Positions 5,582-34,873 of a stretch of 64,000 nucleotides of DNA are shown here, piece by piece; position 1 is the stretch's first letter; each line of letters opens with the position of its first letter. The DNA is from Tubulanus polymorphus. Lineage: Eukaryota > Animalia > Nemertea. The DNA lies in assembly GCF_964204645.1 (NCBI RefSeq), contig NC_134033.1:6888555-6952554 (forward strand), read 5' to 3'. The notes below the pieces were generated by a model, which had not been told where the DNA came from, did no database searches, and saw nothing but the letters and a program-made list of their open reading frames with translations. The position numbers were made by a program, and so were the translations under genes.

Positions 5582-5780
5582 AATATTAAATTAGATAATG
5601 ATTCTAAAATAAAATATTATAATACATCAGAAAATATTAAAACTGATAATATTCAACATGATATAATTAAAACTGATAATGATAATAAATCCCATGAAAA
5701 TACTAAATTAGCTTTAACTTGTATAGGAATTGTTATAGGAGGAATATTATATTTTAAATTTTAATTTTTTTATTATATAA

Positions 5781-7218
5781 ATGGATGTAGAAGGTGGAGA
5801 AGATATTGGAATGGATAATTTTGATGAACCTGGCATAACTGATGAACAACAAACTGATTTTAGTGAAACAAGTTTTAATGACGGTAATGAGCCAGAATAT
5901 AATAATAATTTAAATATGCCTGATTATATTAAAAATGCAGAATCACAATTAAATCCTGAAAATTTAGACCCAGATTTAGTAAAACAAGATTTAGATAATA
6001 TAAACAAAATACCTAAATTAGAACGTATAATTGAAAATTCTAAACTTAACATAAATGATGAAGACGTTGGACCTTTAGCAGATCAATTAAAATTTTTAGA
6101 TAATGGCAAATGGTATTATCATTTGAAAGGTGATTATTATATTGATATCACTTATAAAAATAACAAAAATAAAATATTAACAAAATCAACTTTGAGTGAT
6201 TTAGATCCAGATAGAATTAAAAGAATTAGTAATAGTAATGTAATAACTGATGTTATAAAACAAGAATTAACTGGTAATGATATAGACGTATTTAAACAAA
6301 GAATTAATGAATTATTTGAAATAATCAAAAAGAAATCAGAAACAGAAACAACTTCTGAACAGAATATAACTTCCAAAACTACTAAACTTAAATCAAATAA
6401 AGTTCCAATTGAAAAACTTTTACCGAATGGATTAATTGATGCAACAGATCAACAATTAGAAGATTTAAATATATTTTCTGATAAAGCAATTAGAGAAATT
6501 ATTAGTATAAGAAATGAAGCTGATAAAATTGCACATAATAAAAGTACAAGAGATATTAAAATTAGAACTTTAGAAAAAGAATTAACCGATAAAAATAAAG
6601 AAATGGAACAATTAAAGTCTGATTTAGATCATCAAGTAATTGATGAAATAGAATATAGGCAAAAAGAATTACGATTAGAAAAAGAAATTAATAATTTAAA
6701 AGATAATTTAGAAGTACAGAAAGAAGAAATTAAATTATTATTAAAATCATATAATTATATTATAAATAGATTAAAAGTTATTTTAAAGATTTGTTGATAA
6801 AACCAAATTCTGAAATATCATTGAAAGATAGAATAAAATTATTATTTAAATTAGAAGGAATAACAATTCTTTCAATTCTAACAGCTGTAACTATGTTATT
6901 TACAACAATAGGTTTAGCTATATCAAATTCACTGAAATCTACTCCTACTCCCAATAAACCGGATAAACCCCAGATAATAATTCTGTACAAGATAAAGTCA
7001 AAGATGGTTTAAAGAAATTAGCAAAATATTTATGGGAACTATCTAAAAAATCTGCTGCAGCTTTACCAGGAATTAATGCGTCAATTGTTGGTTTTATATT
7101 GAAATCTGCAGGAAACATTATTGACTTTGCTGCTGAACATATCATTTTATTTTTAATTACAATTGCAAGTGCTATTATTTTTGGGTTAGTGAATATGATA
7201 TCAAAAAATATCAAGTAA
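5781..7218 (+). pseudogene. Acidic/coiled-coil protein with C-terminal transmembrane segments (homologue of 20786-22408)
   Basis: ORFs 5781-6797 and 6791-7012 plus a third frame to 7218; C-terminus near-identical to 20786-22408; two frameshifts. Confidence 0.85.
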
Positions 7219-7258
7219 ACATGATAAAAGATAAATGATTAATTTTTTTGTTAAATAA

Positions 7259-8499
7259 ATGAGTGGGCGTTATATCAATCCTTCTAAGAATCATAGAATA
7301 TCTAATGCTATTAAAGCAGAAAGATCACATCATATTATTACTCATAACCCTTCTAATATTAATCCTGATGAAACTTTATATGTTAGAATCCCTAGATTAA
7401 CACAAAATACTTTTTATGTTCCAAATAGTATTTATTTATCAGCCGATATAAAAGTAACCGGTAATAATAATAATTATGTTGTTGATAATGTTGGGAGATA
7501 TTTGATTAAAAAATTAACAATAAAGATTGGCCCAGAAACAGTTTTCTCATTAGATGATTATAATTTATTTATGCATTATAAAGATTTATGGTTAACTAAA
7601 GAAAATAGAAATAATATGATATTTCAAGGCATTCAATCGGAAAACCATAATAAATTAAGATCAGGAGCTAATGGCGCAATAGTAACTCGTGCCGCAGATA
7701 ATTTGATAAAAAAGATTTATGGAAGCAAATATAAAATTCCATTAGACTTTGAATTGATAAATAATAATGCGCCTTTATATAAATACGCAATTCAAGAAGA
7801 TGTTATATTCGAAATAACATTTGCTCCTGTAAATGAAATTGTATTATCTAGCGTTGTTAAAGATATGGGATATAAATTATCGAATTAGAATATAATACAG
7901 TAACTAATGAAAATATTGCTAATACAATTCAAACTCAATACAATCAAGGATTTTCATTATTATATGATTATATTGATAAATTTAAAACTGTAACTATTAA
8001 TGCAAATGATGAAATAATTAATGAGAATATTAACTTCCCAAGAAGATCTATTAAAGGTATCTTAATATTTTTTACCATTGCAACATATTCTAATGGCGCA
8101 ATAAAGGTAGATAATTATTATAATCCTGAAATAACAAAAGTAGAAATAACTATCGAAGGAATAGCAAATAAAATATTTTGTCAAGGAATGAGAATGATAG
8201 ATCAATGGCCAGAAATTAGAAAACATTTTATGATTGAAAAAGTAAAATCATCTGAAAATTGTAATATTAATCAAATTGATTATTATACAGGTAATAAATA
8301 TGCATTATGGTTAGATTTTAGAACAACAGAGGATAATTCATTACATGGTTCTGGAAAAAAACTACAAAACACTAAAGATGGAATACAATTATTCATGACA
8401 AAGAAAAGAGGAGACAAAAATTTCAAAATACACATTAATATTATATGTGACGCACAATTAAATATTGTAAATTCACAATTAGATAGTATTCAATATTAG
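7259..8499 (+). pseudogene. Putative double jelly-roll major capsid protein, frameshifted
   Basis: Highly similar to 22429-23677; a 7-bp deletion at ~7885 shifts the frame. MCP call rests on size, beta-rich pattern and context. Confidence 0.65.
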
Positions 8500-8529
8500 A
8501 AATATAAAGTTAAAATTAAGGATATATAA

Positions 8530-9656
8530 ATGGGCGGTAAAAAACTCCTAATACTAAAGAACAATATTTAAGAAATTTATATTACAACCCTGAGAGTTCG
8601 GTTGCTTATTCTTCTACCAACAATATGTGGCGTCAAGTAAAACAAGATAAATTAGATAAGATAATCCCAAAAAATTTAGTTAAATATAAAGATATAAATG
8701 AATTTATGTTAGAACAACCAACATACACAACACATAAAAAAATTGTTAGAGAATATAAAACTCGTAAAACTATGGTAAGTTATGTAGATCAACAGTGGCA
8801 AGGAGATTTAATTGATATGAAAAATGTTAAGAAAGATAATGATGATTATTGGTGGATATTGAATATAATTGATATTTTTAGTCGTTATGTATGGAGCTTC
8901 CCACTTTACAGAAAACATGCTGCACAAACATCAAATGTTTTAAGAAAATTTCTTTCGGATGATAAAATAAAACCAGAAAAAATACAATTTGATGATGGAA
9001 AAGAATTTGATAATTCACTTGTTCATGAACTCTTAGATAATCATAATATTAAATATTTTTCAACAAAATCGGATAAAAAAGCAGCAGTGGTTGAACGATT
9101 TAATAGAACATTAAGAACAAGAATGTGGAAATATTTTACAGCAAATAATACTTTTAAATGGATTGATGTTTTACCAAAATTGATAGAAGGTTATAATAAT
9201 TATTATCATTCTTCTATTGGAATGAAACCTATTGATTCTAGAAAACCTGAAAATGCTGAAATTGTTTGGAATAATTTATATGGAGCATTTCTTGTAGATG
9301 ATTTTGGTGAACCTAAATTTAAAGTTGGTCAAAATGTTAGAATTTCTAAGTATAAAAAGATATTTGACAAAGGATACGATCGAAATTTTACTAGGGAAAT
9401 ATAAAAAATAAAAAAGGTAATAACAACAAAACCATATGTCTATAAATTAGAAGATTTAGATGGTGAAGAAGTTGATGGCTACTTTTACGAAGAAGAATTA
9501 AGTTTAACTACTGAAAATCTAGAACAAGAATATAAAATTGAAAAAGTATTAAAAACAAAAACTATTAAAAGAAAAAAATATTCTTTAGTAAAATGGGTTG
9601 GATGGCCAGATAAATTCAATGAATGGATATTATCAAGTAAAATTAAAAATATATAA
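8530..9656 (+). pseudogene. rve (retroviral-like DDE) integrase with C-terminal chromodomain
   Basis: GDLIDM / IQFDDGKEF / AVVERFNRTL triad; early frameshift; in-frame TAA at 9402, then YKIEKVLKTKTIKRKKYSLVKWVGWPDKFNEWI. Confidence 0.92.
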
Positions 9657-10266
9657 ATGAATAAGGAATTATTTACATTTGAGCCTCATAATATGTTAAT
9701 TTCTGGCGTAACAAATTGTGGAAAAACTTATTTTATATTAAATTTATTAGAAACTGTTTATAAAAACTATTTTGATAGTATAGTATTATTTTGTCTAACA
9801 TATGAATTTAATCAAACTTATGATAGAAATATTACTAGAAATAATACATTTATTATAATAGATCCTAAAACAGTAAAAGAAAATTTAGATAATTGTATAA
9901 AAATAGCAATTGATATTTATAAAGGATCAAATACATTATTTATCATAGATGATTGTGCAAATTTACATGATTCAAAAATTAGAGAGAGTGAGTTATGTTA
10001 TTTAGCTTTTTCTGGTAGACATTTTGGGATAACAACTTGGGTTTTAAATCAAAAATATAATTCAATTGTTAAAGACTTTAGAGAAAACATTAGATTTCTA
10101 GTTTTATTCTACAATAAAGATAGAAAATCGATGAAAAATGCACTTGAGGAAAATGATATTATTCCACATGATTTACATAATGAATATATGGATAAATTAA
10201 AAAAATTTTAAAAGATCAAAATCACTATTTAGATTACAACACCCATTTAAATATGAATTTATTTAA
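9657..10266 (+). pseudogene. A32/FtsK-HerA-type packaging ATPase with C-terminal frameshift
   Basis: Walker A GVTNCGKT, Walker B FIIDD, GRH and NQ motifs. Confidence 0.9.
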
Positions 10267-10267
10267 A

Positions 10268-10445
10268 TTCAACTAGCTTGTTAATCTAGTATATTTTTAG
10301 TTACATTCTAGTTGAATTCTAGTTATTGGTAGTTGAAACAAAAATCAAATAAAATTCCACAAGAAATAAATAAAAACAACAATATTTCAACTAGCTTGTT
10401 TATCTAGTTGAATTCTAGTTACATTCTAGTTGAATTCTAGTTGCA
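10268..10445. repeat. CTAG-rich short direct and inverted repeats
   Basis: TTCAACTAG and CTAGTTGAATTCTAG repeated; a related tract lies at 32584-32740 upstream of the homologous gene. Confidence 0.6.
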
Positions 10446-10474
10446 ACAACACAACTAATTTTTTTGTTATATAA

Positions 10475-11065
10475 ATGGTGGGTGAAAAGAAAATAAAATC
10501 TAAAAATGGTGATGTTCCAATTGAAAAAACTTTAGATGATTTAGGAATAACAGAAACAAAATTAACTCCAGATGATGGTGCTTTAAGTAATGTTACAACA
10601 AATAATAATTATGAATATTATCTTTATTGTAAACATCAATTAGAAATATTAATAGCATCTGGAAAATGTAAAAATTTTATCGGTAAAAATTTAACTTATA
10701 ATGAATTAGATAAAATGAAATCAGATGAAATTATTAGATTATTTAAGATTTATGAAACCGCGAGAACAGCTAGAATTAATGACGCGATATCAGAAAATGT
10801 AGTAAAAGGTTAAAGTAAATTATGTAATTATATGCTGCCAATTCAAGATGAAAATAGATTTTATGCTGATTTAAAAAATGATTATTTAGTTATGACCGAA
10901 TTAAATGAATGGATTGGATATTTATCATTTCAATTAGGTGGATTTATGACATTATTATCAACTGGAGTTATAACATTTTCAAATATTGAAAGTAAAAATA
11001 TTTCTATAATAAATGAACAAGGTGGAAGAAGTGAAGAAAAAACCGAGAAGTCCGAAACAAATTGA
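10475..11065 (+). pseudogene. Conserved hypothetical Polinton protein (homologue of 32788-33390)
   Basis: Shares IEKTLDDLGI, YEYYLYCKH and DLKNDYLVMTEL; in-frame stop at 10811-10813. Confidence 0.85.
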
Positions 11066-11432
11066 ATTGAAAATATTGTTATTTCTACTTCTTCTAATAA
11101 TAGAATATTTGATAAATGTCTATATTTTACAGTTGGATTTGTAATTGTATTCATTTTGATTGGGTGTAATTGGTATAAGAAATCAAATAAAATTCATGAT
11201 ATTTATAATTCTGAAACAACTGCTATCAAAAATGAAAATACTTCTGAAATTCCAAAATTGATAATAAAAAAAATGGATTAATATTTTAGAAAAAAAGCAA
11301 AAAAAATGATTTTTTTTTAATTAATTGAATATCTCACTACTTTTGTGTATCTATGCGGAGCAATTAAATTGTCCAGATAAGTCATTTCGGATTCTAGATA
11401 TTCATTATTTTTATTAATTTATTTTTTAAAAT

Positions 11433-11743
11433 TTAATCAACAATTTCTAAATTATGATGGCCATCTTCATTTTTTCCATGATAGATTATTTTAAATCCTT
11501 CTAAATCTTTTAATTCCTCTGCATTTATCAGGTAAAAATACTTTAAATTCTCGCGATGTACTAACAGTTGCAGTAGCTTAGATTAGCTGATACTTTCTCT
11601 CCATATTTAGTTCTCTTTTCTAATTTCAATATTTTATGTTCAATTTCTTTTGTAACATCAACTTACTCTTTTATTTCAAATTGTTTTTTTGCTGGTTTTA
11701 TTCTGTTATTTATTGTTGTTAAGAATGCTTTTCTATCTCCCAT
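11433..11743 (-). pseudogene. Degraded small protein, homologue of 16817-17172 (possible OB-fold ssDNA-binding protein)
   Basis: Manual translation …TKYGEKV…FKVFLPDKC…YHGKNEDGHHNLEIVD* versus …NKYGDKL…FRTYLPDRF…YKGKNEKGHHEIDFE*. Confidence 0.7.
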
Positions 11744-12080: not shown

Positions 12081-12276
12081 CTTTCCTGACGATTTGAGCG
12101 CTTTTACGCATCGACACTGTCGTTTTTTCCGATAGGGGGAATGTTTGATACGAAAATGTTTTTTCTCGCGCTGAACGACGTTTTCGGGTCGAAAAGTGCT
12201 TTTCCTGACGATTTGAGCGCTTTTACGCATCGACATTGTTGTTTTTCCGATAGGGGGAAAATTTGATAAGAAAACA
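12081..12276. repeat. ~1.7 orphan monomers of the 118-bp satellite between the two Polintons
   Basis: ctttcctgacgatttgagcgcttttacgcatcgac…; edge-type variants (tttgata, cgggtc) as in 35988-38550. Confidence 0.97.
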
Positions 12277-12687
12277 AGTAATAGGGATAATAGGCTTTCA
12301 AGCCAAAGGTCGAACGGTCGAGCTCATTAAAAAACAAAACATTAAAAGTAATTTAAAACTATAATATATTTTCATAACCGTGTGTATTTTATATTATAAC
12401 TAAATATTTATTCTAAGATATCAATAATTTAAAAAGCATATTGTATTAAATCATTAAATACACAAATTCATATAATCAAATATATTTTAATAATAATAAT
12501 TATTCTATTATTCAACTGAAATACATACGGTTATGAAAATATATTATAGTTTTGAATTACTTTTAATGTTTTGTTTTTAATGAACTCGACCATTCAACCT
12601 TTAACCTGAAAGCCTATTATCCCTATTACTCTTAGAATAATCATATACATGAATAAAATTTAAATTGACAGATTATTCAATATAAAA
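12277..12687. repeat. Left TIR of element B (self-complementary 12277-12389 / 12518-12630)
   Basis: Reverse complement of 35526-35987 apart from a ~50-bp deletion of the GC hairpin. Confidence 0.95.
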
Positions 12688-12836
12688 GTATATATTTACA
12701 ACATTATTTCAATATTTATATTTGTATGAGTTAGATTTTTAAACATTAAAAGTGTTAGTAAAGTGTGATTGAAATAATACATAATTTAAATCATTGAACT
12801 TCTAAAATCAATTTTAATAACAATTTCAGTATTAAA

Positions 12837-15800
12837 ATGGAAGCAAATAAGTACTACTGTCCAACATGTAATATCAATATAGATAAATCCCAAAAAGCAA
12901 GACACAATAAAACTAAAACACATTTAGAGAATAAATTGAAACTAGAATATAAAGATGATATATTAGAAATTAATTAGATGAATAAAAGAATGAAAAAGAA
13001 ACATACAAATGTGATCATGTAATCAATCATTCAGTGATAAAAGATATCATAATGAACATTTAAAATCTAAAAGTCATATTAGAAATAAGAATAATGATAT
13101 TTTAGGTAAAGATTATTTTGATAAAGATAATGATAAGAAACAGAAGACAATTAAAAGCATAAAAAATAAATTAAACAATAAAAGACCATACATGGAAGAT
13201 GTAAGAAAATATATTAATTCATTCGATAATAAAAAAGATATAGAGATAACCGAAGCATTTAAAAGTGATATTGGCCCAGCAGCTATCGAGTTTAAATTTC
13301 ATAAAGGAAAAACATTAGAAGAAAATAAAAAACATTTAGAAAATATGAAAAATATTATAAAAATAATAACTGATGTTGAATATCCTAAAATTAGTATATC
13401 TTCTAAAGTTAAATTCATAAAATCTGAAGATAAACCAATATATAATATAAATTCTCATTCACAACATATTATATCTAAACAACATATAGATGAAAAATTA
13501 GATAAATGTTATAATGAAGTAAAAACTAAAATAGAAGAGAAATATTTTGAAGGATCTGGTTTAATATTCGATGAAATAATATTTATGACTTTACATGTTT
13601 ATAACACAAAATATAATAAGTTAACTAAATCAAAACCAATAGATGAAAATAATGTATCATATTATAAAGAACCAGATATTGAAGCATCAAGTTATATTAA
13701 ACTACCATTTAAAACTAATGCTGTAACAAATGTACAAAATGAAGATGATAAATGTTTTCTATGGGCTATAATAAGTTGTTTACACCCAGTTGAAGATTAT
13801 AAACAACATAGTTTTAGATTAACTCATTATAAACAATTTGAAAATAATTATAAGATAGATAAGTATCCTGTCATAATTAAAAACATCCCAAAAATAGAAA
13901 GAGATAATAATTTAAGAATAAATGTATTTGATTTAATCAAATTACCAAATACAAAAGGTAACAACATAAAACATTATACATTAGAACCTTTATACCTATC
14001 AAAAGATTATGATTCAAACGATGTTATAGATAAACTATATTATGAGAATCATTATATGTGGATTAAACAAATAGATTTATTCTTTAGAACAGAAAGTGAT
14101 CACCATAATAAAATATATCTATGTAGAAAATGTTTACATAGATTCAGTAATGAAAGTACATTATTAAATCATAAACAATTATGTGAAAATCATGATTATT
14201 GTAAATTAGTTTTACCAAATGAAAAGGATAAAATATTAGAATTCAAAAAATATGATTACAAAAATAAGGTACCATTTGTTATATATGGAGATTTTGAATC
14301 ATTAAATAAAGAATTAACTGATCAAGATAGAAAAGAAATATATTATAAAAGAAAGAAAGTAAATGCTAATGAAAATGATTATTCTGAAGAACCACCAAAA
14401 ACAAATACTATTAAAAAGATTCATCAATCAGCTGCAGCTTTCGGGTTATATATTAAATCTGATTATCCAGAACTAATTGAAAGTGAATATTATCATAACA
14501 GAAATGAAAATTTTATCAATCATTTTTGTGACTTATTAATTGAATATGAAATAAGATTTAGTAAATTATTGAATACAAATATAGAAATTATAATGACAGA
14601 AGAAGATAAAGAAGAATTTGCGTTTGCAGATAAATGTTATTATTGTGAAAAGATATTTAATTATAAAGATAAAAAAGTAAGAGACCATGATCATTTGAAT
14701 GGAAAGTTTAGAGGCGCTGCACATGAGAATTGTAACTTACAAGCTAAGAAAATTACTTTTTACCAGTTATATTTCATAATCTATCAGGATATGATGCGCA
14801 TTTATTCATCAAACAGTTATGTCATAAAATAGAAGAAATTAATAATGAAATAGAAAGATTAAATTCAAATAGATCAAAAGATAAAATACCAACTTATAAA
14901 TTTAGAATGTTAGCTAAAACATCTGAGATTTATATATCATTCCAATTTGGTTGCCTAAGATTTATAGATTCATATAGATTTTTAAATAGTTCATTAGATA
15001 ACTTATCAAAATCATTAGTTGATGATGAATTGAAAATATTAAAACAACACTATCCAAATAATGATGATTTTCAATTAATGAGATATAAAGGCGCAATTCC
15101 ATATTCTTTCTATAAAAATCATAATGATTTCAATATAACTGAATTATTAAAAGAGCAATTGTTTCAAAATAGAAAATCATGAGCAATTAGTAGATATATA
15201 TTTAAAATCAGATGTATTATTATTAACCGATATATTCGAAAGGTTTAGAGATGTAAACCTAAAATATTTTAATATTGATCCTTGTCATTGTTATTCTAGT
15301 CCAGGTTTAACATGGGATTGTGGATTAAAATTTACAGATATAAAAATGGATTTGTTAACAAATACAGATCAATTACTTTTATTCGAAAAATCTATAAGAG
15401 GAGGAGTTTCAGGTGTATTAGGTGATATTTATTTCAATGTAAATGATAACCCTGGATATAAGTTATTATATATAGATGCAAATAATTTATATGGTTGGGC
15501 AATGCTCCTTATGGAGTATTTGAAATAAGTGAAGTTTTACAGAATGAAAATAATGACAAATTTGATTGGAAGAAAAGAAATCTAGATATTGCAGATGATT
15601 CAGATACTGGTTACTTTTTTGTTGTAGATTTAGAATATCCTGAACATATTTAATTTAAATCTAGAAATCTGGCATACTGTCCAGAACATAAAACTGTAAC
15701 TCATGAAGAATTATCAAATTACCAAAAAAGAATTAAACCCGAAAATCATATTCATACAGAAAAGTTAATGGTAATGATAAATATAATTATGTAGTACATT

Positions 15801-16730
15801 ATAGAATGTTAAAGTTTTATTTGAATCAAGGAATGATTCTAAAAAAAGTACATAGATATATTTCATTCAGTCAATCTAAGTGGTTAGAAAAATATATAGA
15901 TTTTAACACCAAACAGAGAACTGAAGCTAAAACTGATTTCGAGAAAGATTTCTTCAAGTTAATGAATAATGCATTCTATGGTAAGACTTGTGAAAATATT
16001 AGAAATAGAAATGATATTGAGTAAGTCAGTAATGGTAAAAGAATTAGACATTTACAAACATATCCTAAGTTCATTGGTAACAGAATATTTGATGAAAATT
16101 TAGCTGCCGTTAAGATGAGAAGAACATCAATGAAATTTAATAAACCAATCTATGTTGGCGCATCAGTTTTAGAATTATCAAAATAACTAATGTATGAATT
16201 CTATTATAATGTATTACAACCACTTTTTGGAGAAAAACATATAGAAATATTATATTTTGATACCGACAGTTACATATTAAAGATAAAAACTGATAACATA
16301 ACTGATGATTTAAAAACATTAAAACATCATTTTGATTTCAGTAATTATCCTAAAGATCATGAATTGTTTAGCAATGATAATAAAAAAGTTCCCGGTTAAT
16401 TCAAAGATGAATTAGGTGGTGAAGAAATGATAGAGTTCATCGGTATTAGATCTAAAATGTATTCATATAAAACTAAAGAACATGAAGCTAAAAAGTTAAA
16501 AGGAATAACCAAAAGTGGAGAAGAATTTTCATTTCAAAGATTACATCAATTGTATATTCAATGAAGAAGTTAGAAAACATAAGATGAGATGTTTAAGATC
16601 TGAAGATCACGAGATGTTTATTGAAGAAATTGAAAAGTTTAGTTTGAATCCATTTGATGATAAAAGATATATTTTAGATGATGGAATTCATACAGTCGCG
16701 TATGGTTGCAATTTAGATGATTATCTATAA
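12837..16730 (+). pseudogene. Protein-primed family B DNA polymerase with N-terminal Zn fingers and endonuclease VII-like domain
   Basis: YGDFES (ExoI), RDHDHLNGKFRGAAHENCN (EndoVII-like), YIDANNLYGWAM (A), KLMNNAFYGK (B), YFDTDS (C); broken into many ORFs by frameshifts and stops. Confidence 0.95.
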
Positions 16731-16816: not shown

Positions 16817-17172
16817 ATGGAGAGTAAACAAGCACACAGTGAGAACAACAAATTATTTCTAGATAGAATATAAAAGATACTTCAAATGTCAAATCAGTAG
16901 ATTATAAGTTTAAGAAGTTAAAAGAATTAACAATCCATAAGAAATATCTAATTACAAATATTGATACAGTTACTAACAAATATGGAGATAAATTAGTTAT
17001 ACACTTAGAATATGAAGGATTAAAAGGAAATACATATAAATTCAGAACATATTTACCAGATAGATTTCATAGATTATCAAGTGAAGATTTAAAAGAATTA
17101 TGTTCTGGTGATTTCTATTTCGTATACAAAGGTAAGAATGAAAAAGGGCACCATGAAATAGATTTCGAATAA
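16817..17172 (+). pseudogene. Small basic protein, possible OB-fold ssDNA-binding protein (not in ORF track)
   Basis: TAAATG start; frameshift at ~16871, then FKKLKELTIHKKYLI…KYGDKLVIHL…FRTYLPDRF; homologue in element A. Confidence 0.6.
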
Positions 17173-17960: not shown

Positions 17961-18317
17961 ATGAATATAACTGTTGGGCCGAGTATATGTTTTGGGTTTG
18001 ATTTTAAACATGAGAAAGAAATGAAATTCAACGTTAATGATGTAATTACACATATCAACAATATTGCATTTTCTAATGAAACGACATTTGAGTATGAAAC
18101 AACAATAGATAAAGAAACTTTAAATGTAGAAAAGATTACTAATTAAATTAGAGAATCTTTAAGATTTTATGAATTAGATGAAGATTTTATCATCGATGAT
18201 ATTAAAAAAATAATAATTGAAATATATACAAATGAAACTAGTAATGAAATAAATGTTGATTTAATCATCACTAAGATAACTAAATATTTTAATGATAGCA
18301 ATCTTTTTGATAAATAA
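17961..18317 (+). pseudogene. Hypothetical protein with one in-frame stop
   Basis: TATAAATG start; frame continues past TAA 18144 to TAA 18315-18317. Confidence 0.55.
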
Positions 18318-18539: not shown

Positions 18540-18563
18540 ATACATAATTATTATACTAAATAA

Positions 18564-18986: not shown

Positions 18987-19005
18987 TAATTTTTTTGCTA
19001 AATAA

Positions 19006-19440: not shown

Positions 19441-19456
19441 TTTTTTAATTATATAA

Positions 19457-22428: not shown

Positions 22429-23677
22429 ATGAGTTGGAGTTATATCAATCCTTCTAAGAATCATAGAATATCTAATGCTATTAAAGCAGAAAAGATCACA
22501 TCATATAATTACTCATAACCCTTCTAATATTAATCCCGATGAAACTTTATATGTTAGAATTCCTAGATTAACACAAAATACTTTTTATGTTCCAAATAGT
22601 ATTTATTTATCAGCCGATATAAAAGTAATCGGTAATAATAATAATTATGTCGTTGATAATGTTGGAAGATATTTGATTAAAAAATTAACTATAAAGATTG
22701 GTCCAGAAACAGTTTTCTCATTAGATGATTATAATTTATTTATGCATTATAAAGATTTATGGTTAACTAAAGAAAATAGGAATAATATGATATTTCAAGG
22801 CATCCAATCAGAAAACCAAAATAAATTAAGATCAGAAGCTAATAGCGCAATATTAACTAATGCTGTAGATAAATTGATAAAAAGTATATATGGAATCAAA
22901 TATAAAATTCCATTAGACTTTGAATTGATAAATAACAATGCACCTTTATATAAATACGCAATTCAAGAAGACGTTATATTCGAAATAACATTTGCTCCTG
23001 TAAATGAAATTGCAATATCTAGCGTTAATAAAGATATGAGTTATAAATTATCGAATATATGTTTAGAATATGATACAGTAACTGATGAAAATATTTCAAG
23101 TATAATTCAAACTCAATACAATCAAGGATTTTCATTATTATATGATTATATTGATAAATTTAAAACTTTAACTATAAATCCAAATGATGAAATTATTAAT
23201 GAGAATATTAACTTCCCAAGAAGATCTATTAAAGGTATATTAATACTTTTTACCATTGCAACATATACTAATGGCGCAATAAATGTTGATAATTATTATA
23301 ATCCTGAAATAACAAAAGTAGAAATAACTATCGAGGGAATAGCAAATAAAATATTTTGTCAAGGAATGAGAATGATTGATCAATGGCCAGAAATTAGAAA
23401 ACATTTTATGAATGATAAAGTAAAATCATCTGAAAATTGTAACATTAATCAAATTGATTATTATACCGGTAATAAATATGCATTATGGTTAGATTTTAGA
23501 ACAACAGAGGATAATTCATTACATGGTTCTGGAAAAAAACTACAGAACACTAAAGATGGAATACAATTATTCATGACAAAGAATAAAGGAATCAAAAATT
23601 TTAAAATGCACATTTATATTATATCTGACGCACAATTAAATATTGTAAATTCTCAATTAAATAGTGTTATGTATTAG
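22429..23677 (+). pseudogene. Putative major capsid protein with +1 A frameshift near the N-terminus
   Basis: True start TAAATG at 22429; gcagaaaagatc versus gcagaaagatc at 7317; the remainder is open (ORF 22475-23677). Confidence 0.7.
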
Positions 23678-23709: not shown

Positions 23710-24564
23710 ATGGAAGGTGGTAAAGTATATAAACATATTCCATACATCGATACACATGAAAATAATGATGGTTTATATTATGTAATACCTTGTAATATGG
23801 CTTTGATATTTGATCCTATTTTCAAAATTTATAAAACTAAACTAATAGAAATCGATAATAATAAAAGTGAAGTTGTTGATAATTTAAGTAATGTAATTGA
23901 TAATAATGTAATACCTACTACATCTAATAATGTAATACCTTCTACATCTAATAATGCAATGCCTTCTACATCTAATAATGTAATACCTTCTACATCTAAT
24001 AATGTAATACCTTCTACGTCTAATAATGTAATACCTTCTACATCTAATAATGTAATAATATTAAATGTTAATGAAAATAGAAATTATTGTGGATATTGTA
24101 AAAGTGAATTTTCAAACGCTTCATCAAATTGGAATAAACATATGAAAACAAGGGTACATATAAATAATGTTATAGAACGTGTTGGTTTAAAAGAATTTAT
24201 AGAACACCCATTTAGATATGTTACAAAGTTTGTTTCAAATCAAAAAGTAAATGGTGAAAAAATATATGAAGATTTATTATTAGCAACACCTAATAAAGAT
24301 GAATTAGATATAACCGATGCTAATGAAATATTAGGATCAAACACTGTAAATGAAATATTAGGAGCAAACACTAATAAAGATTCTATGAAACATAAAGTAG
24401 AAAATAATGATAAATTTGATTGGATGAATAAGCATAACAATGAAACAACTATTGATGATTCGGTAAAAAGGATGAAAAAGTATAAAAATAATAAAGAATT
24501 TGAAGAAGAAAATTCGGTAGAGAATTTGAATAAATTGTTAGGGTCTGATAGTGAAAGTGATTAA
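23710..24564 (+). CDS. C2H2 zinc-finger protein with NNVIPSTS repeats, 284 aa
   Basis: CGYC…WNKHMKTRVH; 24-bp tandem repeat at ~23902-24056. Confidence 0.8.
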   Translation: MEGGKVYKHIPYIDTHENNDGLYYVIPCNMALIFDPIFKIYKTKLIEIDNNKSEVVDNLSNVIDNNVIPTTSNNVIPSTSNNAMPSTSNNVIPSTSNNVIPSTSNNVIPSTSNNVIILNVNENRNYCGYCKSEFSNASSNWNKHMKTRVHINNVIERVGLKEFIEHPFRYVTKFVSNQKVNGEKIYEDLLLATPNKDELDITDANEILGSNTVNEILGANTNKDSMKHKVENNDKFDWMNKHNNETTIDDSVKRMKKYKNNKEFEEENSVENLNKLLGSDSESD

Positions 24565-24594
24565 GATATTAATTATATTTAACTCAAAAAGTAA

Positions 24595-24955
24595 TAAAGG
24601 TTGAAAATTGTATAAAATAATAGTAAATAAAAAAGGGGGTTTTAAGTATTTAAGGTATCTAATACATATCTAATACATATCTTATACATATCTAATACAA
24701 TCTAATACATAAAATATCTTATTTTATAAACAGATATTCATATGGAAATTGAAACCTCAGTAATAATAAATAACCTTTATTATTTTCAAACTGATTCATA
24801 TATTAGTTGAAAAAATAAAAATAAATTGGTTGAAAATTGTATAAATAATATTTATTTTAAAAAAGGGGGTTTTAAGTATTCAAGGTATCTAATAGGGTAT
24901 CAGGTATTAGGGTATCTAATGGGGTATCAGGTATTAGGGCATCTAATACATAGGT
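24595..24955. repeat. Intergenic repeat block (GGTTGAAAATTGTATAAA…AAAAGGGGGTTTTAAGTA twice, plus TATCTAATAC/G units)
   Basis: Also present at ~29758-30110 and ~31124-31476. Confidence 0.75.
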
Positions 24956-24965
24956 ACACAAATAG

Positions 24966-25577
24966 TTATTTTACAAATTTATATTCATAGGGAAATTGTA
25001 ATCTCAGTAATAATTTTGAACCTTTATTATTCTTTAATTTATTCATATATTCATCATGTAATTCAGTAGGTATAATTTGATTTCCTTCCAATGATTGTTG
25101 CATAGATTTTTTATCTTTGTTATCAAATAAAACTAGAAATCTTATATTCTCCCTAAAGTCTTTAACAATTGAATTATATTTTTGATTTAAAACCCATGTT
25201 GTTATCCCAAAATGTCTCCCAGAGAAAGCTAGATAACATAACTCACTTTCTCTAACTTTTGAATCATGTAAATTTGCGCAATCATCTATAATGAATAATG
25301 TATTTGATCCTTTATAAGTATCAATTGCTATTTTAATACAATTATCTAAATTTCCTTTTACTGTTTTAGGATCTAATAAAATAAACTTTTTTATCTTAAC
25401 TATATCTCTATCATAAGTTTTATTCATTTCAGAAGTAGGACAGAATAATATTATATTATCAAAACGATTCTTATAAATAGTTTCTAACAAATCTAATATG
25501 AAATGTGTTTTACCACAATTGGTTACACCAGTAACTAACATATTATGCGGTTCAAATATAAATAAATCTTTATTCAT
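24966..25577 (-). CDS. A32-type packaging ATPase, intact, 203 aa
   Basis: GVTNCGKT, FIIDD and GRH motifs. Confidence 0.93.
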   Translation of the reverse strand: MNKDLFIFEPHNMLVTGVTNCGKTHFILDLLETIYKNRFDNIILFCPTSEMNKTYDRDIVKIKKFILLDPKTVKGNLDNCIKIAIDTYKGSNTLFIIDDCANLHDSKVRESELCYLAFSGRHFGITTWVLNQKYNSIVKDFRENIRFLVLFDNKDKKSMQQSLEGNQIIPTELHDEYMNKLKNNKGSKLLLRLQFPYEYKFVK

Positions 25578-26688
25578 TTATTCTTTTAATTTTACTAGAT
25601 AAAATCCATTCATTAAATTTATCATCATATCCTTTATATTTCACCAAAGAATACTTTTTTCCTTTAAGAGTTTTTGTTTTCAATACTTTTTCTATTTTGT
25701 ATTCTATTTCATCTGGACTTGGAACTAGTGATAATTCTTGTTCATAGAAATAACCTAATATTTGTTCGTCTTTTAAATCTTCTAATTTATAAACAAATGG
25801 TTTAGTTAATATTATCTTTTTAATCTTGAATATTTCTTCAGTAAAATTTGGGGTATAACCTTTATAAAATGTTTTTCTATATTTAGATATTCTGACGTGT
25901 TGTCCAATTTTGAATCTAGGTTCACCGAAATCATGTGTAACAAATGCTCCATATAAATTATTCCAAACTATTTCCGAATTATCTTCTTTTCTAGCTTGTA
26001 TAGGTTTCATATTTATAGAACTATGTTTAGAATTATTATAACCTTTCACTAAATCATCTAATACATCGATATATTTATATGTTTCATTAGCAGTAAAATA
26101 TTTCCACATTCTAGTTTTCAATGTTTTATTAAATCTTTCTATAATAGATGCTTTTTTATCTGAATGTGTTGAAAAATAATCTACATCGTTATCAGATAAT
26201 AGTTTTTTAAAATGTTTGTTATAGAATTCCTTACCTTCATCAAATTGTATCTTATCTGGAATAGCTTCTTTAAATATAGATTTAAAAGCATTTGTTACTT
26301 CTATTCCAGTTTTATTTTTGATTGGAATTGACCATGCGTATCGACTGAATATGTCTATAACATTTAATATCCAGAAATATCCTTTGTTGTATTCCTCTAA
26401 GTTCTTCATGTCAATTAAATCTGCTTGCCATTGTTGATCGATATATGAAACCATAACTTTTCTTGTTAAATAAGTTTTATCCATTTTCTTGTGTATTTGA
26501 TATGTTGGTTGATTTTGTAACCATGATTTTAATTCACTATATTTTATACCACCATGTGGGTGCCGTACGGCACCATCACCATTTTCATTATCAGATTTAA
26601 TTTTATTCCATAATTCTGAAACGTTAGAATATGATACTTCACTTTCTGGGTTATAATATAAATCATTTAAATATTGTTCTTTTTTCAT
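25570..26688 (-). CDS. rve integrase with C-terminal chromodomain, intact, 372 aa
   Basis: ADLIDM / IQFDEGKEF / SIIERFNKTLK triad; YKIEKVLKTKTLKGKKYSLVKYKGYDDKFNEWI. Confidence 0.95.
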   Translation of the reverse strand: MKKEQYLNDLYYNPESEVSYSNVSELWNKIKSDNENGDGAVRHPHGGIKYSELKSWLQNQPTYQIHKKMDKTYLTRKVMVSYIDQQWQADLIDMKNLEEYNKGYFWILNVIDIFSRYAWSIPIKNKTGIEVTNAFKSIFKEAIPDKIQFDEGKEFYNKHFKKLLSDNDVDYFSTHSDKKASIIERFNKTLKTRMWKYFTANETYKYIDVLDDLVKGYNNSKHSSINMKPIQARKEDNSEIVWNNLYGAFVTHDFGEPRFKIGQHVRISKYRKTFYKGYTPNFTEEIFKIKKIILTKPFVYKLEDLKDEQILGYFYEQELSLVPSPDEIEYKIEKVLKTKTLKGKKYSLVKYKGYDDKFNEWILSSKIKRINE

Positions 26689-26959
26689 CTTATTTTAATC
26701 CATTAATAATAATCTTGGTTTATTTTCAATGACTTTATCATTTAATTTATTTTCTGGTATAATAGGTTTATTGTCATTGTAATCATCTTTATCATTAGAT
26801 TTGAATTTTGATTTATATATTACACCGGATAATATAATAACTGTTACTAATCCAATTGCTGCTGAACATATTATTTTATTTCTATTTACAGTTGTAAGTG
26901 CAATTATTTTTGGGTTAGTAAACATGATAGAAAATAAATAATTAATTTTTTTTCTAAAT

Positions 26960-28847: not shown

Positions 28848-28879
28848 AATTTTAACTATAATAAAAATTTATATAATAA

Positions 28880-29755
28880 ATGGAAGGAGGTAAAGTATAT
28901 AAACATATTCCATACATCGATGCACATGAAAATAATGATGGTTTATATTATGTAATACCTTGTAATATAGCTTTGATATTTGATCCTATTTTCAAAATTT
29001 ATAAAACTAAACTAATAGAAATCGATAATAATAAAAGTTGTGTTGTTGATAATTTAAGTAATGTAATTGATAATAATGTAATACCTTCTACATCTAATAA
29101 TGTAATACCTACTACATCTAATAATGTAATACCTTCTACATCTAATAATGTAATACCTTCTACATCTAATAATGAAATAATATTAAATTTTAGTGAAAAT
29201 AGAAATTATTGTGGATATTGTAAAAGTGAATTTTCAAACGCTCCATCAAATTGGAATAAACATATGAATACAAGGGTACATATAAATAATGTTATAGAAC
29301 GTGTTGGTTTAAAAGAATTTATAGAACACCCATTTAGATATGTTACAAAGTTTGTTTCAAATCAAAAAGTAAATGGTAAAGAATTATATAAAGATTTATT
29401 ATTAGCAACACCTAATAAAGATGAATTAGATTTAACCGATGCTAATAAAATATTAGAATCAAACACTGTAAATGAAATATTATGAGCAAACACTAATAAA
29501 GATAATAATGAAAATGCTGCCGTATGGCACCAACATGGCGATATAGTTACAGGAAAGCGCATTGATAATAAAGATTCTATGAAACTTAAATCAGAAAATA
29601 AAGATATAGTTGAGATGACTAATAATTATATCAATAAACCAATTATTTATGAAGATACGGTAGGGCATTTGAATAAATTGTTAGGGTCTGATGATGAATT
29701 GGAGAGTGATGATGAAAGTGATTCAGAAAGTAATTATCTAACACTCAAAAAGTAA
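28880..29755 (+). pseudogene. Second C2H2 zinc-finger/NNVIPSTS gene copy with nonsense at 29483
   Basis: Near-identical to 23710 over the first ~200 codons; fewer 24-bp repeats; extra 72-bp in-frame segment. Confidence 0.85.
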
Positions 29756-32256
29756 TAAAGGTTGAAAATTGTATAAAATAATAGTAAATAAAAAAGGGGG
29801 TTTTAAGTATTAAGGTATCTAATACGTATTAAATACATATCTAATACATATCTAATACGTATTATTTGAAAATACCTTAAATTACATTTCTTTTTTAAAT
29901 TTATATTGAAACCTCAGTAATAATAAATAACCTTTATTATTTTCAAACTTATTCATATATTAGTTGAAAAAATAAAAATAAATTGGTTGAAAATTGTATA
30001 AATAATATTTATTTTTAAAAAGGGGGTTTTAAGTAATTAAGGTATCTAATAAGGTATCAGGTATTAGGGTATCTAATATGGTATCTAATAGGGTATCTAA
30101 TACATAGGTATATTTTAAACATATTTCAATATTTATATTTGTATGAGTTAGATTTTTAAACATTAAAAGTGTTAGTAAAGTTTTATTGAAATAATTCATA
30201 TATATTCATGAATAACATATAAATGAATAACTTCTAAAATCAATTTAGTAAAAAAATATGTATAATAAATGGAACCAGAACAACCACAAACTATAAATAT
30301 TACAAATAACACTGGTGTCATAAACATATACTACAAGAAGTGTTCTAAATGTGAATTAGATAAATTAGCTTTAACAGAATTTAGTAAGCGTAAGATTAGT
30401 AAAGATGGTTTTCAATATTGCTGTAAAACTTGTACTAAACTATATACCAAACAATATCGAGAGGATAATATAGAACATTATAATTATTATATGGCAGAAT
30501 ATATGAGAGAAAGATATAAAACAGATCTTAATTTTAGACTGAAACAATGCTTAAGATCTAGATTAACACAATTATTCAACAAAGAAACACATTTAGAAAC
30601 ACTATCTAATTTATTCGGTTGTTCAGATGAATTTTTCATATCATGGATAATATATCAATTCGATGATAAAATGAATATAGATAATTATGGTGAATACTTT
30701 CATATTGCATGTGTTGCCGATTTCTAAATTTGACATGAGTGATGATTATAATAAGAAGCTAATATGGAATTGGAAGAATCTAAGACCTTTAGAAAAGAAG
30801 GAAAACATAATTAAATCTAACAAACTAGATTTACAGTTATATTTAGATCAACTGGATAAAGCAAAGACATTTGTTGAATTATGGAACTCATGGCACCAAC
30901 ATGGCGATATAGTTACAGGAAAGCGCATTGATAATAAAGATTCTATGAAACTTAAATCAGAAAATAAAGATATAGTTGAGATGACTAATAATTATATCAA
31001 TAAACCAATTATTTATGAAGATACGGTAGGGCATTTGAATAAATTGTTAGGGTCTGATGATGAATTGGAGAGTGATGATGAAAGTGATTCAGAAAGTAAT
31101 TATCTAACACTCAAAAAGTAATGAAGGTTGAAAATTGTATAAAATAATAGTAAATAAAAAAGGGGGTTTTAAGTATTAAGGTATCTAATACGTATTAAAT
31201 ACATATCTAATACATATCTAATACGTATTATTTGAAAATACCTTAAATTACATTTCTTTTTTAAATTTATATTGAAACCTCAGTAATAATAAATAACCTT
31301 TATTATTTTCAAACTTATTCATATATTAGTTGAAAAAATAAAAATAAATTGGTTGAAAATTGTATAAATAATATTTATTTTTAAAAAGGGGGTTTTAAGT
31401 AATTAAGGTATCTAATAAGGTATCAGGTATTAGGGTATCTAATATGGTATCTAATAGGGTATCTAATACATAGGTATATTTTAAACATATTTCAATATTT
31501 ATATTTGTATGAGTTAGATTTTTAAACATTAAAAGTGTTAGTAAAGTTTTATTGAAATAATTCATATATATTCATGAATAACATATAAATGAATAACTTC
31601 TAAAATCAATTTAGTAAAAAAATATGTATAATAAATGGAACCAGAACAACCACAAACTATAAATATTACAAATAACACTGGTGTCATAAACATATACTAC
31701 AAGAAGTGTTCTAAATGTGAATTAGATAAATTAGCTTTAACAGAATTTAGTAAGCGTAAGATTAGTAAAGATGGTTTTCAATATTGCTGTAAAACTTGTA
31801 CTAAACTATATACCAAACAATATCGAGAGGATAATATAGAACATTATAATTATTATATGGCAGAATATATGAGAGAAAGATATAAAACAGATCTTAATTT
31901 TAGACTGAAACAATGCTTAAGATCTAGATTAACACAATTATTCAACAAAGAAACACATTTAGAAACACTATCTAATTTATTCGGTTGTTCAGATGAATTT
32001 TTCATATCATGGATAATATATCAATTCGATGATAAAATGAATATAGATAATTATGGTGAATACTTTCATATTGCATGTGTTGCCGATTTCTAAATTTGAC
32101 ATGAGTGATGATTATAATAAGAAGCTAATATGGAATTGGAAGAATCTAAGACCTTTAGAAAAGAAGGAAAACATAATTAAATCTAACAAACTAGATTTAC
32201 AGTTATATTTAGATCAACTGGATAAAGCAAAGACATTTGTTGAATTATGGAACTCA
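29525..32256 (+). repeat. Tandem duplication of a 1366-bp unit (29525-30890, 30891-32256)
   Basis: Identical ORFs at 30269 and 31635; junction ggaactca|tggcaccaac. Confidence 0.95.
30269..30890 (+). pseudogene. NCLDV/phage-type HNH endonuclease with N-terminal CxxC…CxxC, copy 1
   Basis: KTDLNFRL…LRSRL…GCS…YQF…M…NYG…FHI[D]HVLPIS.FD…W.NLRPL…EN..KSNK; 2-bp deletion in HIDH. Confidence 0.75.
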
Positions 32257-32286
32257 ACACATAATGAAAAATACGTTGAATGTTAA
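31635..32286 (+). pseudogene. NCLDV/phage-type HNH endonuclease, copy 2 (native 3' end)
   Basis: Same sequence and same frameshift as copy 1. Confidence 0.75.
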
Positions 32287-32787
32287 ACGCTTAGAAAACC
32301 GGCTACTCTCGATCTATGTCAAACCGCCTGTATGTAATTGTATTAGGTTGTTTACAAAAGCATCTGTCGCACGTTATATTCAGTTGAATAGGGTGTATCT
32401 CATTTGAATATTGATCGAATGTGCTATTTCAGTTGAAAAGGATTAATCAATAACATTACAAAGGAACATCTGTTGCACCAGACAGTGTTTAGCTAGTGAA
32501 TACCTGGCAGTTATAAACGCGTACGGCACCCACATGGTGATATCAAATAGAATTTAAATAAAATATAATAAAAAAACAATAACTTCAACTAGCTAGTGAA
32601 TTCTATTATATTTTTAATATTTTCTTTTCAAAAAAGAATACTTTATATTTTGAATAGATTCAAATAGAAATTCTTTAAATTCAAATAGCTAGTATCAGTA
32701 GTCAATACTAGAATTCTTTAGCTTTAACTAGCTAGTATCATTTGAAGAATACTTATAATATTTTTTTGCTTTTTTTCTATAATATAA

Positions 32788-33390
32788 ATGTCAAAGAAAT
32801 CTAATAAGAATAATGCCGATATTGAAAAGACATTAGATGATTTGGGTATAAGTGATAATAAAGATACAGTTGTTTCTAATTCTATTCAAGTTAATAACAA
32901 TATTGATTATGAATACTATTTATATTGTAAACACCATCTAGAATTATTAATTGCTAGTGGTAAATGTAATCAGTTTATCGGGAAAATTTTAACTTATCAA
33001 GAACTAGTTGCTATGAAACCCGATAAAGTAATAAAATATTTTAAGATTTATGAAGAGGCAAGATTAGCCCGAATAAACGACTCTATAAGTGATGGTATTG
33101 TCAAATGTTATTCTAAGTTATGTAACCGGTTAATACCAATTGATGATGAAAATAAATTATATAGTGATTTAAAAAATGACTATTTAGTTATGACTGAATT
33201 ACAAAAATGGGTTGGTTATGCTTCATTTCAATTAGGATCGGTAATGACTTTAATTTCTACTGGCGTCATAACATTTTCCAACATCAAGCCTATGGAATAT
33301 AAATCAGGTAAGAACGAAACAGATGTACTACAACCAATCAGTAAAACAGAAAATGAATCAGAACAAAAATTAACTAAAATAAATGAGTGA
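32788..33390 (+). CDS. Conserved hypothetical Polinton protein, 200 aa
   Basis: Intact ORF; TATAAATG start; homologue at 10475. Confidence 0.8.
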   Translation: MSKKSNKNNADIEKTLDDLGISDNKDTVVSNSIQVNNNIDYEYYLYCKHHLELLIASGKCNQFIGKILTYQELVAMKPDKVIKYFKIYEEARLARINDSISDGIVKCYSKLCNRLIPIDDENKLYSDLKNDYLVMTELQKWVGYASFQLGSVMTLISTGVITFSNIKPMEYKSGKNETDVLQPISKTENESEQKLTKINE

Positions 33391-33754
33391 TGGCGTTAAG
33401 AAAAAGGCTAGATCCGAAAAACAAATTAAATGGGCAAGAGAATTAGGTAAAAGATCTTCAGAATTAAAAAAAGCTAAGAAAAAGAAATTAACTGATATTA
33501 ATGAATCACAGACTTTATCTGATATTGATTCAAATAATAATCCATCTGATTCTTCTAATGCTGGAAGTAATAATTACTTATATATTACAATTGGATTAGT
33601 TACAGTTATCATATTCTCTGGTGTAATATATAAATATAAGTATAAATCTGATTATAACAATAATGATTCCAATGATAATAAACCTATTATACCAGAAAAT
33701 AAGACAAATCATAAAGTCATTGAAACTAAATCTAAATTATTATTAATGGATTAA
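33383..33754 (+). CDS. Basic N-terminal, single-TM protein, 123 aa
   Basis: K/R-rich N-terminus; TM YLYITIGLVTVIIFSGVIY; its tail is duplicated on the minus strand at 26695-26858. Confidence 0.75.
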   Translation: MSDGVKKKARSEKQIKWARELGKRSSELKKAKKKKLTDINESQTLSDIDSNNNPSDSSNAGSNNYLYITIGLVTVIIFSGVIYKYKYKSDYNNNDSNDNKPIIPENKTNHKVIETKSKLLLMD

Positions 33755-33760
33755 AATAGA

Positions 33761-34873
33761 ATGAAAAAAGAACAATATTTAAGAGAGTTATATTACAACC
33801 CAGAAAGTGAAGTATCATATTCTAATGTTTCAGAATTATGGAATACAATTAAATCTGATAATGAAAATGGTGCCGTACGGCACCCACATGGTGATATAAA
33901 ATATAGTGAATTAAAATCATGGTTACAAAATCAACCAACATATCAAATACACAAGAAAATGGATAAAACTTATTTAACAAGAAAAGTTATGGTTTCATAT
34001 ATTGATCAACAATGGCAAGCAGATTTAATTGACATGAAGAACTTAGAGGAATACAACAAATGATATTTCTGGATATGAAATGTTATACACATATTCAGTA
34101 GATACGCATGGTCAATTCCAATCAAAAATAAAACTGGAATAGAAGTGACAAATGCTTTTAAATCAATATTTTAAGAAGCTATTCCAGATAAGATACAATT
34201 TGATGAAGGTAAGGAATTTTATAACAAACATTTTAAAAAACTATTATCTGATAACGATGTAGATTATTTTTCAACACACTCAGATAAAAAAGCATCTATA
34301 ATAGAAAGATTTAATAAAACATTGAAAACTAGAATGTGGAAATATTTTACTGCTAATGAAACATATAAATATATCGATGTATTAGATGATTTAGTGAAAG
34401 GTTATAATAATTCTAAACATAGTTCTATAAATATGAAACCTATACAAGCTAGAAAAGAAGATAATTCGGAAATAGTTTGGAATAATTTATATGGAGCGTT
34501 TGTTACGCATGATTTTGGTGAACCAAGATTTAAAATTGGACAACACGTCAGAATATCTAAATATAGAAAAACATTTTATAAAGGTTATACCCCTAATTTT
34601 ACAGAAGAAATATTTAAAATTAAAAAGATAATATTAACTAAACCTTTTGTTTATAAACTAGAAGATCTAAAAGATGAAGAAATATTAGGTTATTTCTATG
34701 AACAAGAATTATCACTTGTACCAAATCCAGATGAAATCGAATACAAAATAGAAAAAGTATTGAAAACAAAAACTCTTAAAGGAAAAAAGTATTCTTTGGT
34801 GAAATATAAAGGATATGATGATAAGTTTAATGAATGGAGTTTATCTAGTAAAATTAAAAGAATAAATGAATAA
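33761..34873 (+). pseudogene. rve integrase plus chromodomain with nonsense mutations
   Basis: Close copy of 25570-26688; stops at ~34061, ~34076 and ~34172. Confidence 0.92.

Follow-up and report, generated by a model that had tools for sequence, protein, structure and literature searches.

The element and its genes

The window analyzed here comprises 64,000 nucleotides (nt) of contig NC_134033.1 from the nemertean Tubulanus polymorphus, and the feature under study is a decayed, rearranged, multi-copy endogenous virus of the Polinton type, most genes of which begin with the word TAAATG, i.e., with TAAAT fused to the start codon. The main copy is delimited by terminal inverted repeats, of which the left (12277 to 12793, plus strand) begins with AGT, its outer 350 nt forming an imperfect palindrome with a deleted centre, and the right (35526 to 35987, minus strand) ends with ACT. 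A 5-bp target-site duplication, AAACA (12272 to 12276, plus strand, on the left; 35988 to 35992 on the right), lies inside a 118-bp satellite, the host array of which (237 copies, 35988 to 64000) is the insertion site of the element.

The genes are on the plus strand unless stated otherwise. The gene for the protein-primed DNA polymerase B (pPolB; 12837 to 16730) is broken into at least seven frames and starts with TAAAATG. It is followed by a small broken gene of unassigned function (16817 to 17172), which has an ATAAATG start behind an A-rich core, and by a conserved but broken family 9 gene (17190 to 17944; ATAAATG), which size alone makes a candidate for the minor capsid protein. The interval 17961 to 19440 is taken up by four small genes (starts at 17961, 18318, 18564, and 19006), all of which begin with ATAAATG, and the last of which has a weak SLATT-like match. 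Next come the gene of a conserved protein of 437 amino acids (aa) with a hydrophobic helix at its C-terminus (19457 to 20770), preceded by an example of the full signal at 19441 to 19459 (T-run, 7-nt spacer, TAAATG); the gene of a conserved 540-aa family 4 protein (20786 to 22408; ATAAATG), a second, broken copy of which starts at 5781; a gene at 22429 to 23677 (ATAAATG), the first frame of which spans 29 aa; and a family-14 gene (23710 to 24564; ATAAATG with an A-rich core), copied at 28880. The A32-type packaging ATPase (24966 to 25577, minus strand; copies at 9657 and 34866) has its ATAAATG within the end of the gene for the rve integrase with chromodomain (25570 to 26688, minus strand; copies at 8530 and 33761), which itself starts at 26688 without TAAATG. 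Further on, a 1367-bp tandem duplication (29524 to 32256) carries a Cys-rich family-8 gene (starts at 30269 and 31635) with a weak HNH match in one relative, and a block at 32788 to 35492, mostly an inverted duplicate of 24960 to 26858, holds a family-2 gene, a family-13 gene, an integrase, and an ATPase. Upstream of the main copy lies a truncated second copy (5582 to 11743), with starts at 5781, 7259, 8530, 9657, 10475, 11013, and, on the minus strand, 11743. Rearrangement has thus involved both inverted and tandem duplication, and the capsid is present three times in addition to the truncated copy of the element.

Of the traits that characterize Polintons/Mavericks, the element has pPolB, the rve integrase, terminal repeats with a target duplication, the A32 ATPase, and a double jelly-roll capsid protein. 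PF03175 matches three pieces of the broken pPolB gene, each below the curated cut-off; the integrase matches PF00665 (E 3e-9), with a weak chromodomain in addition, and the packaging ATPase matches PF04665 (E 4e-12). The capsid protein was modeled with a pLDDT of 89, and its Foldseek matches (E 1e-17 to 1e-21) are best with proteins of the nucleocytoplasmic large DNA virus (NCLDV) type or unnamed proteins, not with adintovirus entries; in BFVD, adintovirus/MELD entries are placed at ranks 22 and 39, and the major capsid protein (MCP) of Mavirus ranks 48 to 50 in the PDB (TM 0.50 to 0.56), below iridovirus and chlorovirus MCPs. No Pfam match to an adenovirus-type cysteine protease was obtained among 28 window and 26 relative proteins, the copy being rearranged and the relatives partial, and neither a phospholipase nor a virophage-type maturation protease was found; an RNA polymerase gene is likewise missing among the scanned open reading frames (ORFs) of the window and its relatives. 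The 437-aa protein, the largest of unassigned function, has 464 relatives and a confident model, for which structure searches recovered no matching fold (Foldseek E at best 0.55, Z at best 3.8); it has no usable match in the Atlas and shows no sign by fold of a polymerase or transcription factor, although this absence is no proof.

Raw reads (1.9 Gb) that bear the same species label cover most bins of the element 400 to 1400 fold (range 75 to 1400), and 1673 reads exit the terminus at 35987 into unlike flanks; the genome therefore holds many insertions. The terminal repeat ends in a 405-nt fold-back (35583 to 35987, also 12277 to 12630 and 164 to 387; z −22), made up of 113-bp arms, an AT-rich loosely paired middle, and a GC-rich hairpin, and it is a family trait because read depth is even across it. 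Such a terminal fold-back is odd for a protein-primed replicon and recalls the hairpin ends that occur in poxviruses and asfarviruses. Short tandem repeats (11 to 27 nt) at 24593 to 24960, 29754 to 30110, and 31126 to 31476 lie at the ends of convergent gene blocks and at rearrangement joints, and the host flank (387 to 4872 and 3069 to 3581) combines a minisatellite of 31 bp with a 1-kb direct repeat and nested inverted repeats.

The start signal, its distribution, and its anatomy

A preliminary description of this DNA had listed 22 starts at which TAA precedes ATG, and ATAAATG is indeed present at all 22, some of which, as it had also remarked, are copies of one gene; the start at 11013 is an additional case. 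The exceptions that it named are borne out for pPolB (TAAAATG at 12837) and for the integrases at 26688 (minus strand) and 33761, which lack the motif. The start at 11743, named as a further exception, does lack TAAATG, its minus-strand ATG standing behind a T-run followed by TATAG, but the homologue in a close relative (L001:125) starts with TATAAATG and has the full motif. The frames at five listed starts are short (8530, 13 aa; 16817, 18 aa; 17190, 59 aa; 18564, 9 aa; 22429, 29 aa) because the copy is broken, as comparison with homologues indicates for all but 16817.

Since TAAATG is common in DNA of 24% GC, the composition of the window element, in which TAA precedes 84 of 1186 ATGs, its enrichment was tested. 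Among the 26 ORFs in the window that reach 100 aa, 15 have TAA before the first ATG, as compared with 200/2977 (6.7%) in local shuffles, and most of the others are frames opening within broken genes. Short non-gene ORFs of the window yield 38/480, and the chance level across nulls is 3 to 7%. Internal in-frame ATGs are unusable as a control, because a TAA before them is a stop, and no host genes lie within the window.

The relatives of the element are 43 loci from a metagenome scan. In the capsid tree, the window groups with L001 to L013, L015, L017, and L022 as clade A (SH 97; 100/100 in a second tree of 25 rows, from which near-duplicates and short rows were left out), and L023 and L024 form a separate lineage B; a single clade of A and B is rejected (p-AU 0.019, for groups named after the first tree). 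Orthologous starts were chosen by eye from gene families, frames beginning inside broken genes were dropped, and so were the capsid ORFs of L016, L018, and L019, where the first ATG lies ahead of the aligned N-terminus. Among non-redundant starts selected in this manner, TAA precedes ATG at 65/72 in clade A, 5/5 in lineage B, and 0/31 elsewhere; with the window removed and the comparison confined to shared gene families, clade A retains 35/40 versus 0/31 in the sister lineages (Fisher p 3e-15). Unselected ORFs give a similar picture, with 55/66 in clade A, 5/6 in lineage B, and 2/99 in the rest. The signal is not due to GC content because the GC-rich members L004 to L006 (36 to 44% GC) keep it at 7/9 starts, whereas the AT-rich sisters L014, L020, L025, and L026 (29 to 31% GC) have it at 0/12; other AT-rich viral loci have it at 32/459. 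The signal is thus lineage-specific, restricted to two lineages, and independent of GC content.

The host of the lineage would be an invertebrate animal. Searches for capsid and ATPase relatives returned none in the viral contig set and two short fragments in the genome contig set. A bivalve carries a 38% capsid homologue, which falls outside clade A. Nine Bartonella-labelled entries (the P0045 cluster) hold a 54% identical capsid protein, a clade A member being present in Bartonella-labelled assemblies; these entries are likely carried-over eukaryotic DNA.

Across the 65 motif-bearing starts of clade A, with upstream positions numbered relative to the T in TAAAT, A occupies −1 in 56, the spacer from −5 to −8 tolerates GC, and T occupies −9 in 58 (versus 49 of 150 non-start TAAATG words) and −10 in 47, within a stretch from −9 to −15 that is 96% A/T. 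A run of at least four T ends 5 to 8 nt before TAAAT at 35/65 starts, but at only 10/150 non-start TAAATG words. The signal is therefore bipartite, with a T-rich core about 9 to 12 nt before TAAAT, a spacer of 5 to 8 nt, and ATAAATG. Additionally, G follows ATG in 49/70 starts. A purine at position −3 of the start codon context is found in 6/72 clade A starts versus 26/31 sister starts, and with T at this position the signal is not a Kozak context, the outcome that would have spoken against the preliminary description.

The T-runs had been described as lying just after the upstream stop, with the poxvirus early terminator TTTTTNT as their model. They are present at the six places cited, yet their position is not tied to that stop: among 34 starts, the standard deviation of the distance is 5.9 nt to the downstream TAAAT and 35.7 nt to the upstream stop. 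They seem to follow the stop because the spacers are short. Furthermore, divergent genes share spacers of 19 to 30 nt with TAAATG at both ends (L007 to L012), and T-runs are present even in such divergent intervals, which contain no gene end (L007 to L009). The T-run is thus part of the promoter, and the terminator interpretation is abandoned. An avoidance of T5NT in coding DNA (17 versus 36 expected) was considered as a terminator signature and rejected, as A-runs (162 versus 224) and antisense T5NT (169 versus 226) are depleted likewise, i.e., on both strands. A splice acceptor was dismissed as well, a T-run with YAG being present at only 1/65 starts.

An A-rich core resembling TTTAATAAAAA replaces the T-run at 12837, 16817, 23710, 28880, and 30269 in the window and at L001:565, L001:11054, L002:2287, and L012:2461. 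A division by gene family into T-core "late" and A-core "intermediate" starts seemed genuine on visual inspection but gave p 0.094 over 57 starts and is not claimed. Finally, coding DNA does not avoid the canonical AATAAA (137 versus 144 expected; 52 versus 53.5 in the window), as compared with 9 versus 14 in the sisters (P 0.02), a result that speaks weakly for transcription outside the RNA polymerase II (Pol II) pathway.

Resemblance to start sites of large DNA viruses

The vaccinia late promoter has a T core 5 to 7 bp from TAAAT (PMC5294985) and a conserved T ten bases upstream (PMC11980589), and TAAATG is also reported for entomopoxviruses (PMC3061580). The TAAAT(G) initiator of this promoter is what the 65/72 clade A starts display, and the element shares with it the fusion to the start codon, the T-rich core 5 to 8 nt upstream, the frequent G after ATG, and promoters placed inside upstream coding ends. 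It differs in that its T peak is one base closer (−9 versus −10), A before TAAAT is nearly fixed, and the signal stands at about 90% of the genes of a 20-kb integrating element in which no polymerase was found. For comparison, 18 chordopoxvirus starts from one 16-kb region, a small, partly duplicated, and GC-richer sample containing no entomopoxvirus, have their T peak at −10 (12/18), a T core in 5/18, and A at −1 in 7/18.

Poxviruses are not alone in using this word. In a blind motif scan, loci with TAAATG at most starts carry iridovirus-type families or capsids that are nearest to grouper iridovirus (E 1e-113). The Pfam families of these loci, including those of the L190 record, are ones that we take to be typical of iridoviruses, and the label of L190 rests on them. 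Two large iridovirus-type records have TAAATG at 41/100 and 26/67 starts, and L306 has ATAAATG at up to 10/14. Across iridovirus-type starts, A occupies −1 in 103/107 and a T core is present in 17/107; related aquatic loci give 71/85 and 10/85, respectively. TATAATAAATG opens the MCP genes of L306, L309, and L321 as well as the window genes at 23710 and 30269. The iridovirus-type starts mostly read AATAAATG, with AA in 99/107 versus 30/65 element starts. These genomes of Pimascovirales type (L285 to L303, L306 to L324) are thus similar to the element in that the two large records use ATAAATG for some 40% of their starts and dissimilar in that their T core is weak and AATAAA often stands a few bases before ATG. 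For many of their genes, AATAAA is fused to the start codon or precedes it by a few bases, an arrangement of which a limited literature search found no description.

The preliminary description had named a pox-like virus alone as the source of the polymerase. This restriction is not supported, given the TAAATG at about 40% of iridovirus-type starts and the A before TAAAT, which these starts share with the element better than the chordopoxvirus sample does. In sequence, the T core seems to point to poxviruses and the A before TAAAT to iridovirus relatives. The only genes found in common with the large-virus loci are the L001 deoxynucleoside kinase, which matches iridovirus-type loci at 30%, and a single ORF in L030; this overlap is uninformative about the helper. 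The kinase gene itself (L001:10340 to 10981, minus strand; PF01712, E 2e-31) has the full start signal.

The sister lineages display a different pattern. In L014, L016, L018 to L020, L025 to L028, L031, and L034, TATA lies within 12 nt of ATG at 22/31 starts, as compared with 4 and 6 in upstream control windows. The asfarvirus late initiator resembles this arrangement (PMC5294985, PMC7458399). One such relative carries a weak VLTF3-like gene (L018:6543 to 7052; PF04947, E 6e-4, below the cut-off).

A proposed helper-dependent promoter and its alternatives

We consider it fairly probable that the signal is a post-replicative promoter, read by the RNA polymerase that a large DNA virus supplies on co-infection, and that the element would be a satellite of this virus. 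Among possible helpers, a poxvirus is put forward tentatively, an iridovirus relative follows as a possible choice, and another large DNA virus is a doubtful one. According to this proposal, the element would be silent until a large DNA virus infects the cell; infection would bring the polymerase to the integrated or an excised copy, transcription would start inside the AAA of TAAAT, and slippage of the polymerase may add an A leader, through which the transcript would gain the purine missing from the DNA at −3. pPolB, the capsid protein, and the ATPase could then make particles, which the integrase would reinsert. Since the promoter would be read by a viral polymerase, the element would be active only during infection by that virus. 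There are precedents for single steps: TAAA is read by the polymerase itself in vaccinia (PMC12917281), the A leader is made by slippage (PMC6211774), and mavirus is silent, then replicates and reinserts (PMC8547959; bioRxiv 068312). A promoter motif shared with large DNA viruses is a trait of the virophage lifestyle, and TAAATG is common to poxvirus and iridovirus-type starts. Dependence on a large-virus polymerase, the core of the preliminary description, persists as the best reading of a conserved, promoter-like signal, shorn of the terminator and of the exclusively poxviral helper.

Several points weigh against it. No transcript, start site, or helper virus has been seen, and the signal matches no sampled virus exactly: its T peak is at −9 versus −10 in the 18 chordopoxvirus starts, A at −1 is found in 56/65 element starts versus 7/18 in the pox sample and 103/107 among iridovirus-type starts, and only 18/65 element starts score nearer the pox matrix than the iridovirus one, the pox matrix being built from a small, GC-richer sample. 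Several integrase starts and the window pPolB start are without TAAATG. The curated starts were selected visually while the motif flag was on display, those from close relatives do not count as independent observations, and the AATAAA test has no host-gene baseline. Moreover, a host-lineage effect could underlie the contrast between clades.

A first alternative is a compact Pol II promoter or initiator of the host lineage, in which a word similar to TATAAA or AATAAA with a very short leader would let the element act autonomously in the nucleus. The 25/65 starts that read TATAAATG are in keeping with such a promoter, and very short leaders do exist in some eukaryotes. However, T at −3 is a poor context for translation starts unless a leader is added, AATAAA occurs freely in coding DNA, and two divergent genes would have to be served by spacers of 19 to 30 nt; a TATA fused to ATG would, in addition, place the start site inside the gene, as TATA lies 25 to 30 nt before the start (PMC5294985). 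We regard this alternative as unlikely. Still less probable is that the signal is read by the polymerase of a resident element, be it a pGKL-type linear plasmid or a large virus that is itself endogenous, instead of an incoming virus. The yeast linear elements lend it some plausibility, since they have their own pox-related polymerase, a TAAAN initiator, slippage-made A leaders, and a pPolB replicon (PMC6211774), and have been described as Polinton-derived (PMC11161782). Unlike the element, they encode that polymerase themselves and neither form a capsid nor integrate. The passages on pGKL mention no fusion of TAAAN to ATG (PMC6211774), and no such polymerase gene is present in the window or in the scanned ORFs of the relatives.

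A role in translation or 3' processing, i.e., as a stop for re-initiation, an upstream poly(A) signal, or a trans-splice acceptor, is highly improbable. It would account for TAA as an in-frame stop, which at the ATPase genes (9657, L001:8470) is the upstream gene's own, and for the AATAAA contained in 30/65 starts. Against it, the signal is found at divergent starts without an upstream gene and inside upstream coding ends, the spacers to the upstream gene vary from −11 to 146 nt, the T-run with YAG is virtually missing, and TAG and TGA do not replace TAA, bar single cases. Base composition or Kozak context alone, for which the AT-richness of the element and the abundance of TAA before its ATGs might be adduced, is largely refuted and scarcely probable, given nulls of 3 to 7%, the retention of the signal in GC-rich members and its lack in AT-rich sisters, and the near absence of a purine at −3.

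If the signal is a promoter for a helper's polymerase, the element has parallels among known satellites. Virophages and the Polinton-like virus (PLV) Gezel carry the promoter of their helper (PMC8547959; bioRxiv 2022.07.28.501842). Mavirus, the endogenous mavirus-like elements (EMALEs), and Gezel-14T are small virus-like elements as well, and the EMALE types are integrated and, like the lineages studied here, vary in their motifs; they differ from the present element in their protist hosts, mimivirus-type helpers, motifs (TCTA; AAAATTGA), and experimentally shown activation, and the element lacks, as far as found, the maturation protease of virophages. PLVs associated with entomopoxviruses have been proposed as poxvirus hyperparasites (PMC11296320); in contrast to the element, they measure about 12 kb, have an adenovirus-type protease and no rve integrase, and were found in occlusion bodies (PMC11296320). 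Maverick/Polinton groups 1 and 2 and the Aquintovirus-like elements derived from animals (bioRxiv 2026.06.19.733378) share with the element pPolB, the rve integrase, the A32 ATPase, the double jelly-roll capsid, terminal repeats, and the target duplication; the element differs from them in that no cysteine protease or phospholipase was found, and its lineage may be a candidate for the octocoral, hydrozoan, and bivalve lineage that this preprint places outside groups 1 and 2.

The words "motif" and "transcription" are absent from the entomopoxvirus PLV paper (PMC11296320), which offers no motif analysis. The word "promoter" is absent from a PLV framework preprint, the coral Polinton paper (PMC11131425), PMC11161782, a mosaicism preprint, and an egovirus preprint, and the only match in PMC4542343 was a reference line. 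No description of TAAATG in Polintons stood among the matches listed, a provisional result of searches that did not force the words jointly and had supplements outside their scope.

It is not settled whether animal Polintons live autonomously in the nucleus or depend as satellites on large DNA viruses, helper dependence having been shown only in protists, and a promoter signature found almost throughout one clade but not in its sisters makes the matter directly testable. The iridovirus-type starts with fused AATAAA, at about 40% of genes, widen the range of helper candidates and may mark the late promoter of those viruses. The signal described here is a real, lineage-specific, and promoter-like feature of a Polinton-type endogenous virus, which would represent the virophage pattern in a new form, probably in animals. 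More tentatively, the animal-integrated Polinton-like lineage might live parasitically in the manner of virophages, with promoters adapted to the late polymerase of a helper that is switched by lineage; TAAATG, fitting a poxvirus or an iridovirus, would have arisen twice, and the sisters would use an asfarvirus-like TATA initiator. The many chromosomal copies might then serve invertebrates as a store of antiviral defence that infection sets off, and the start motif, which offers an assignment of the helper from sequence alone, might predict the helper family.

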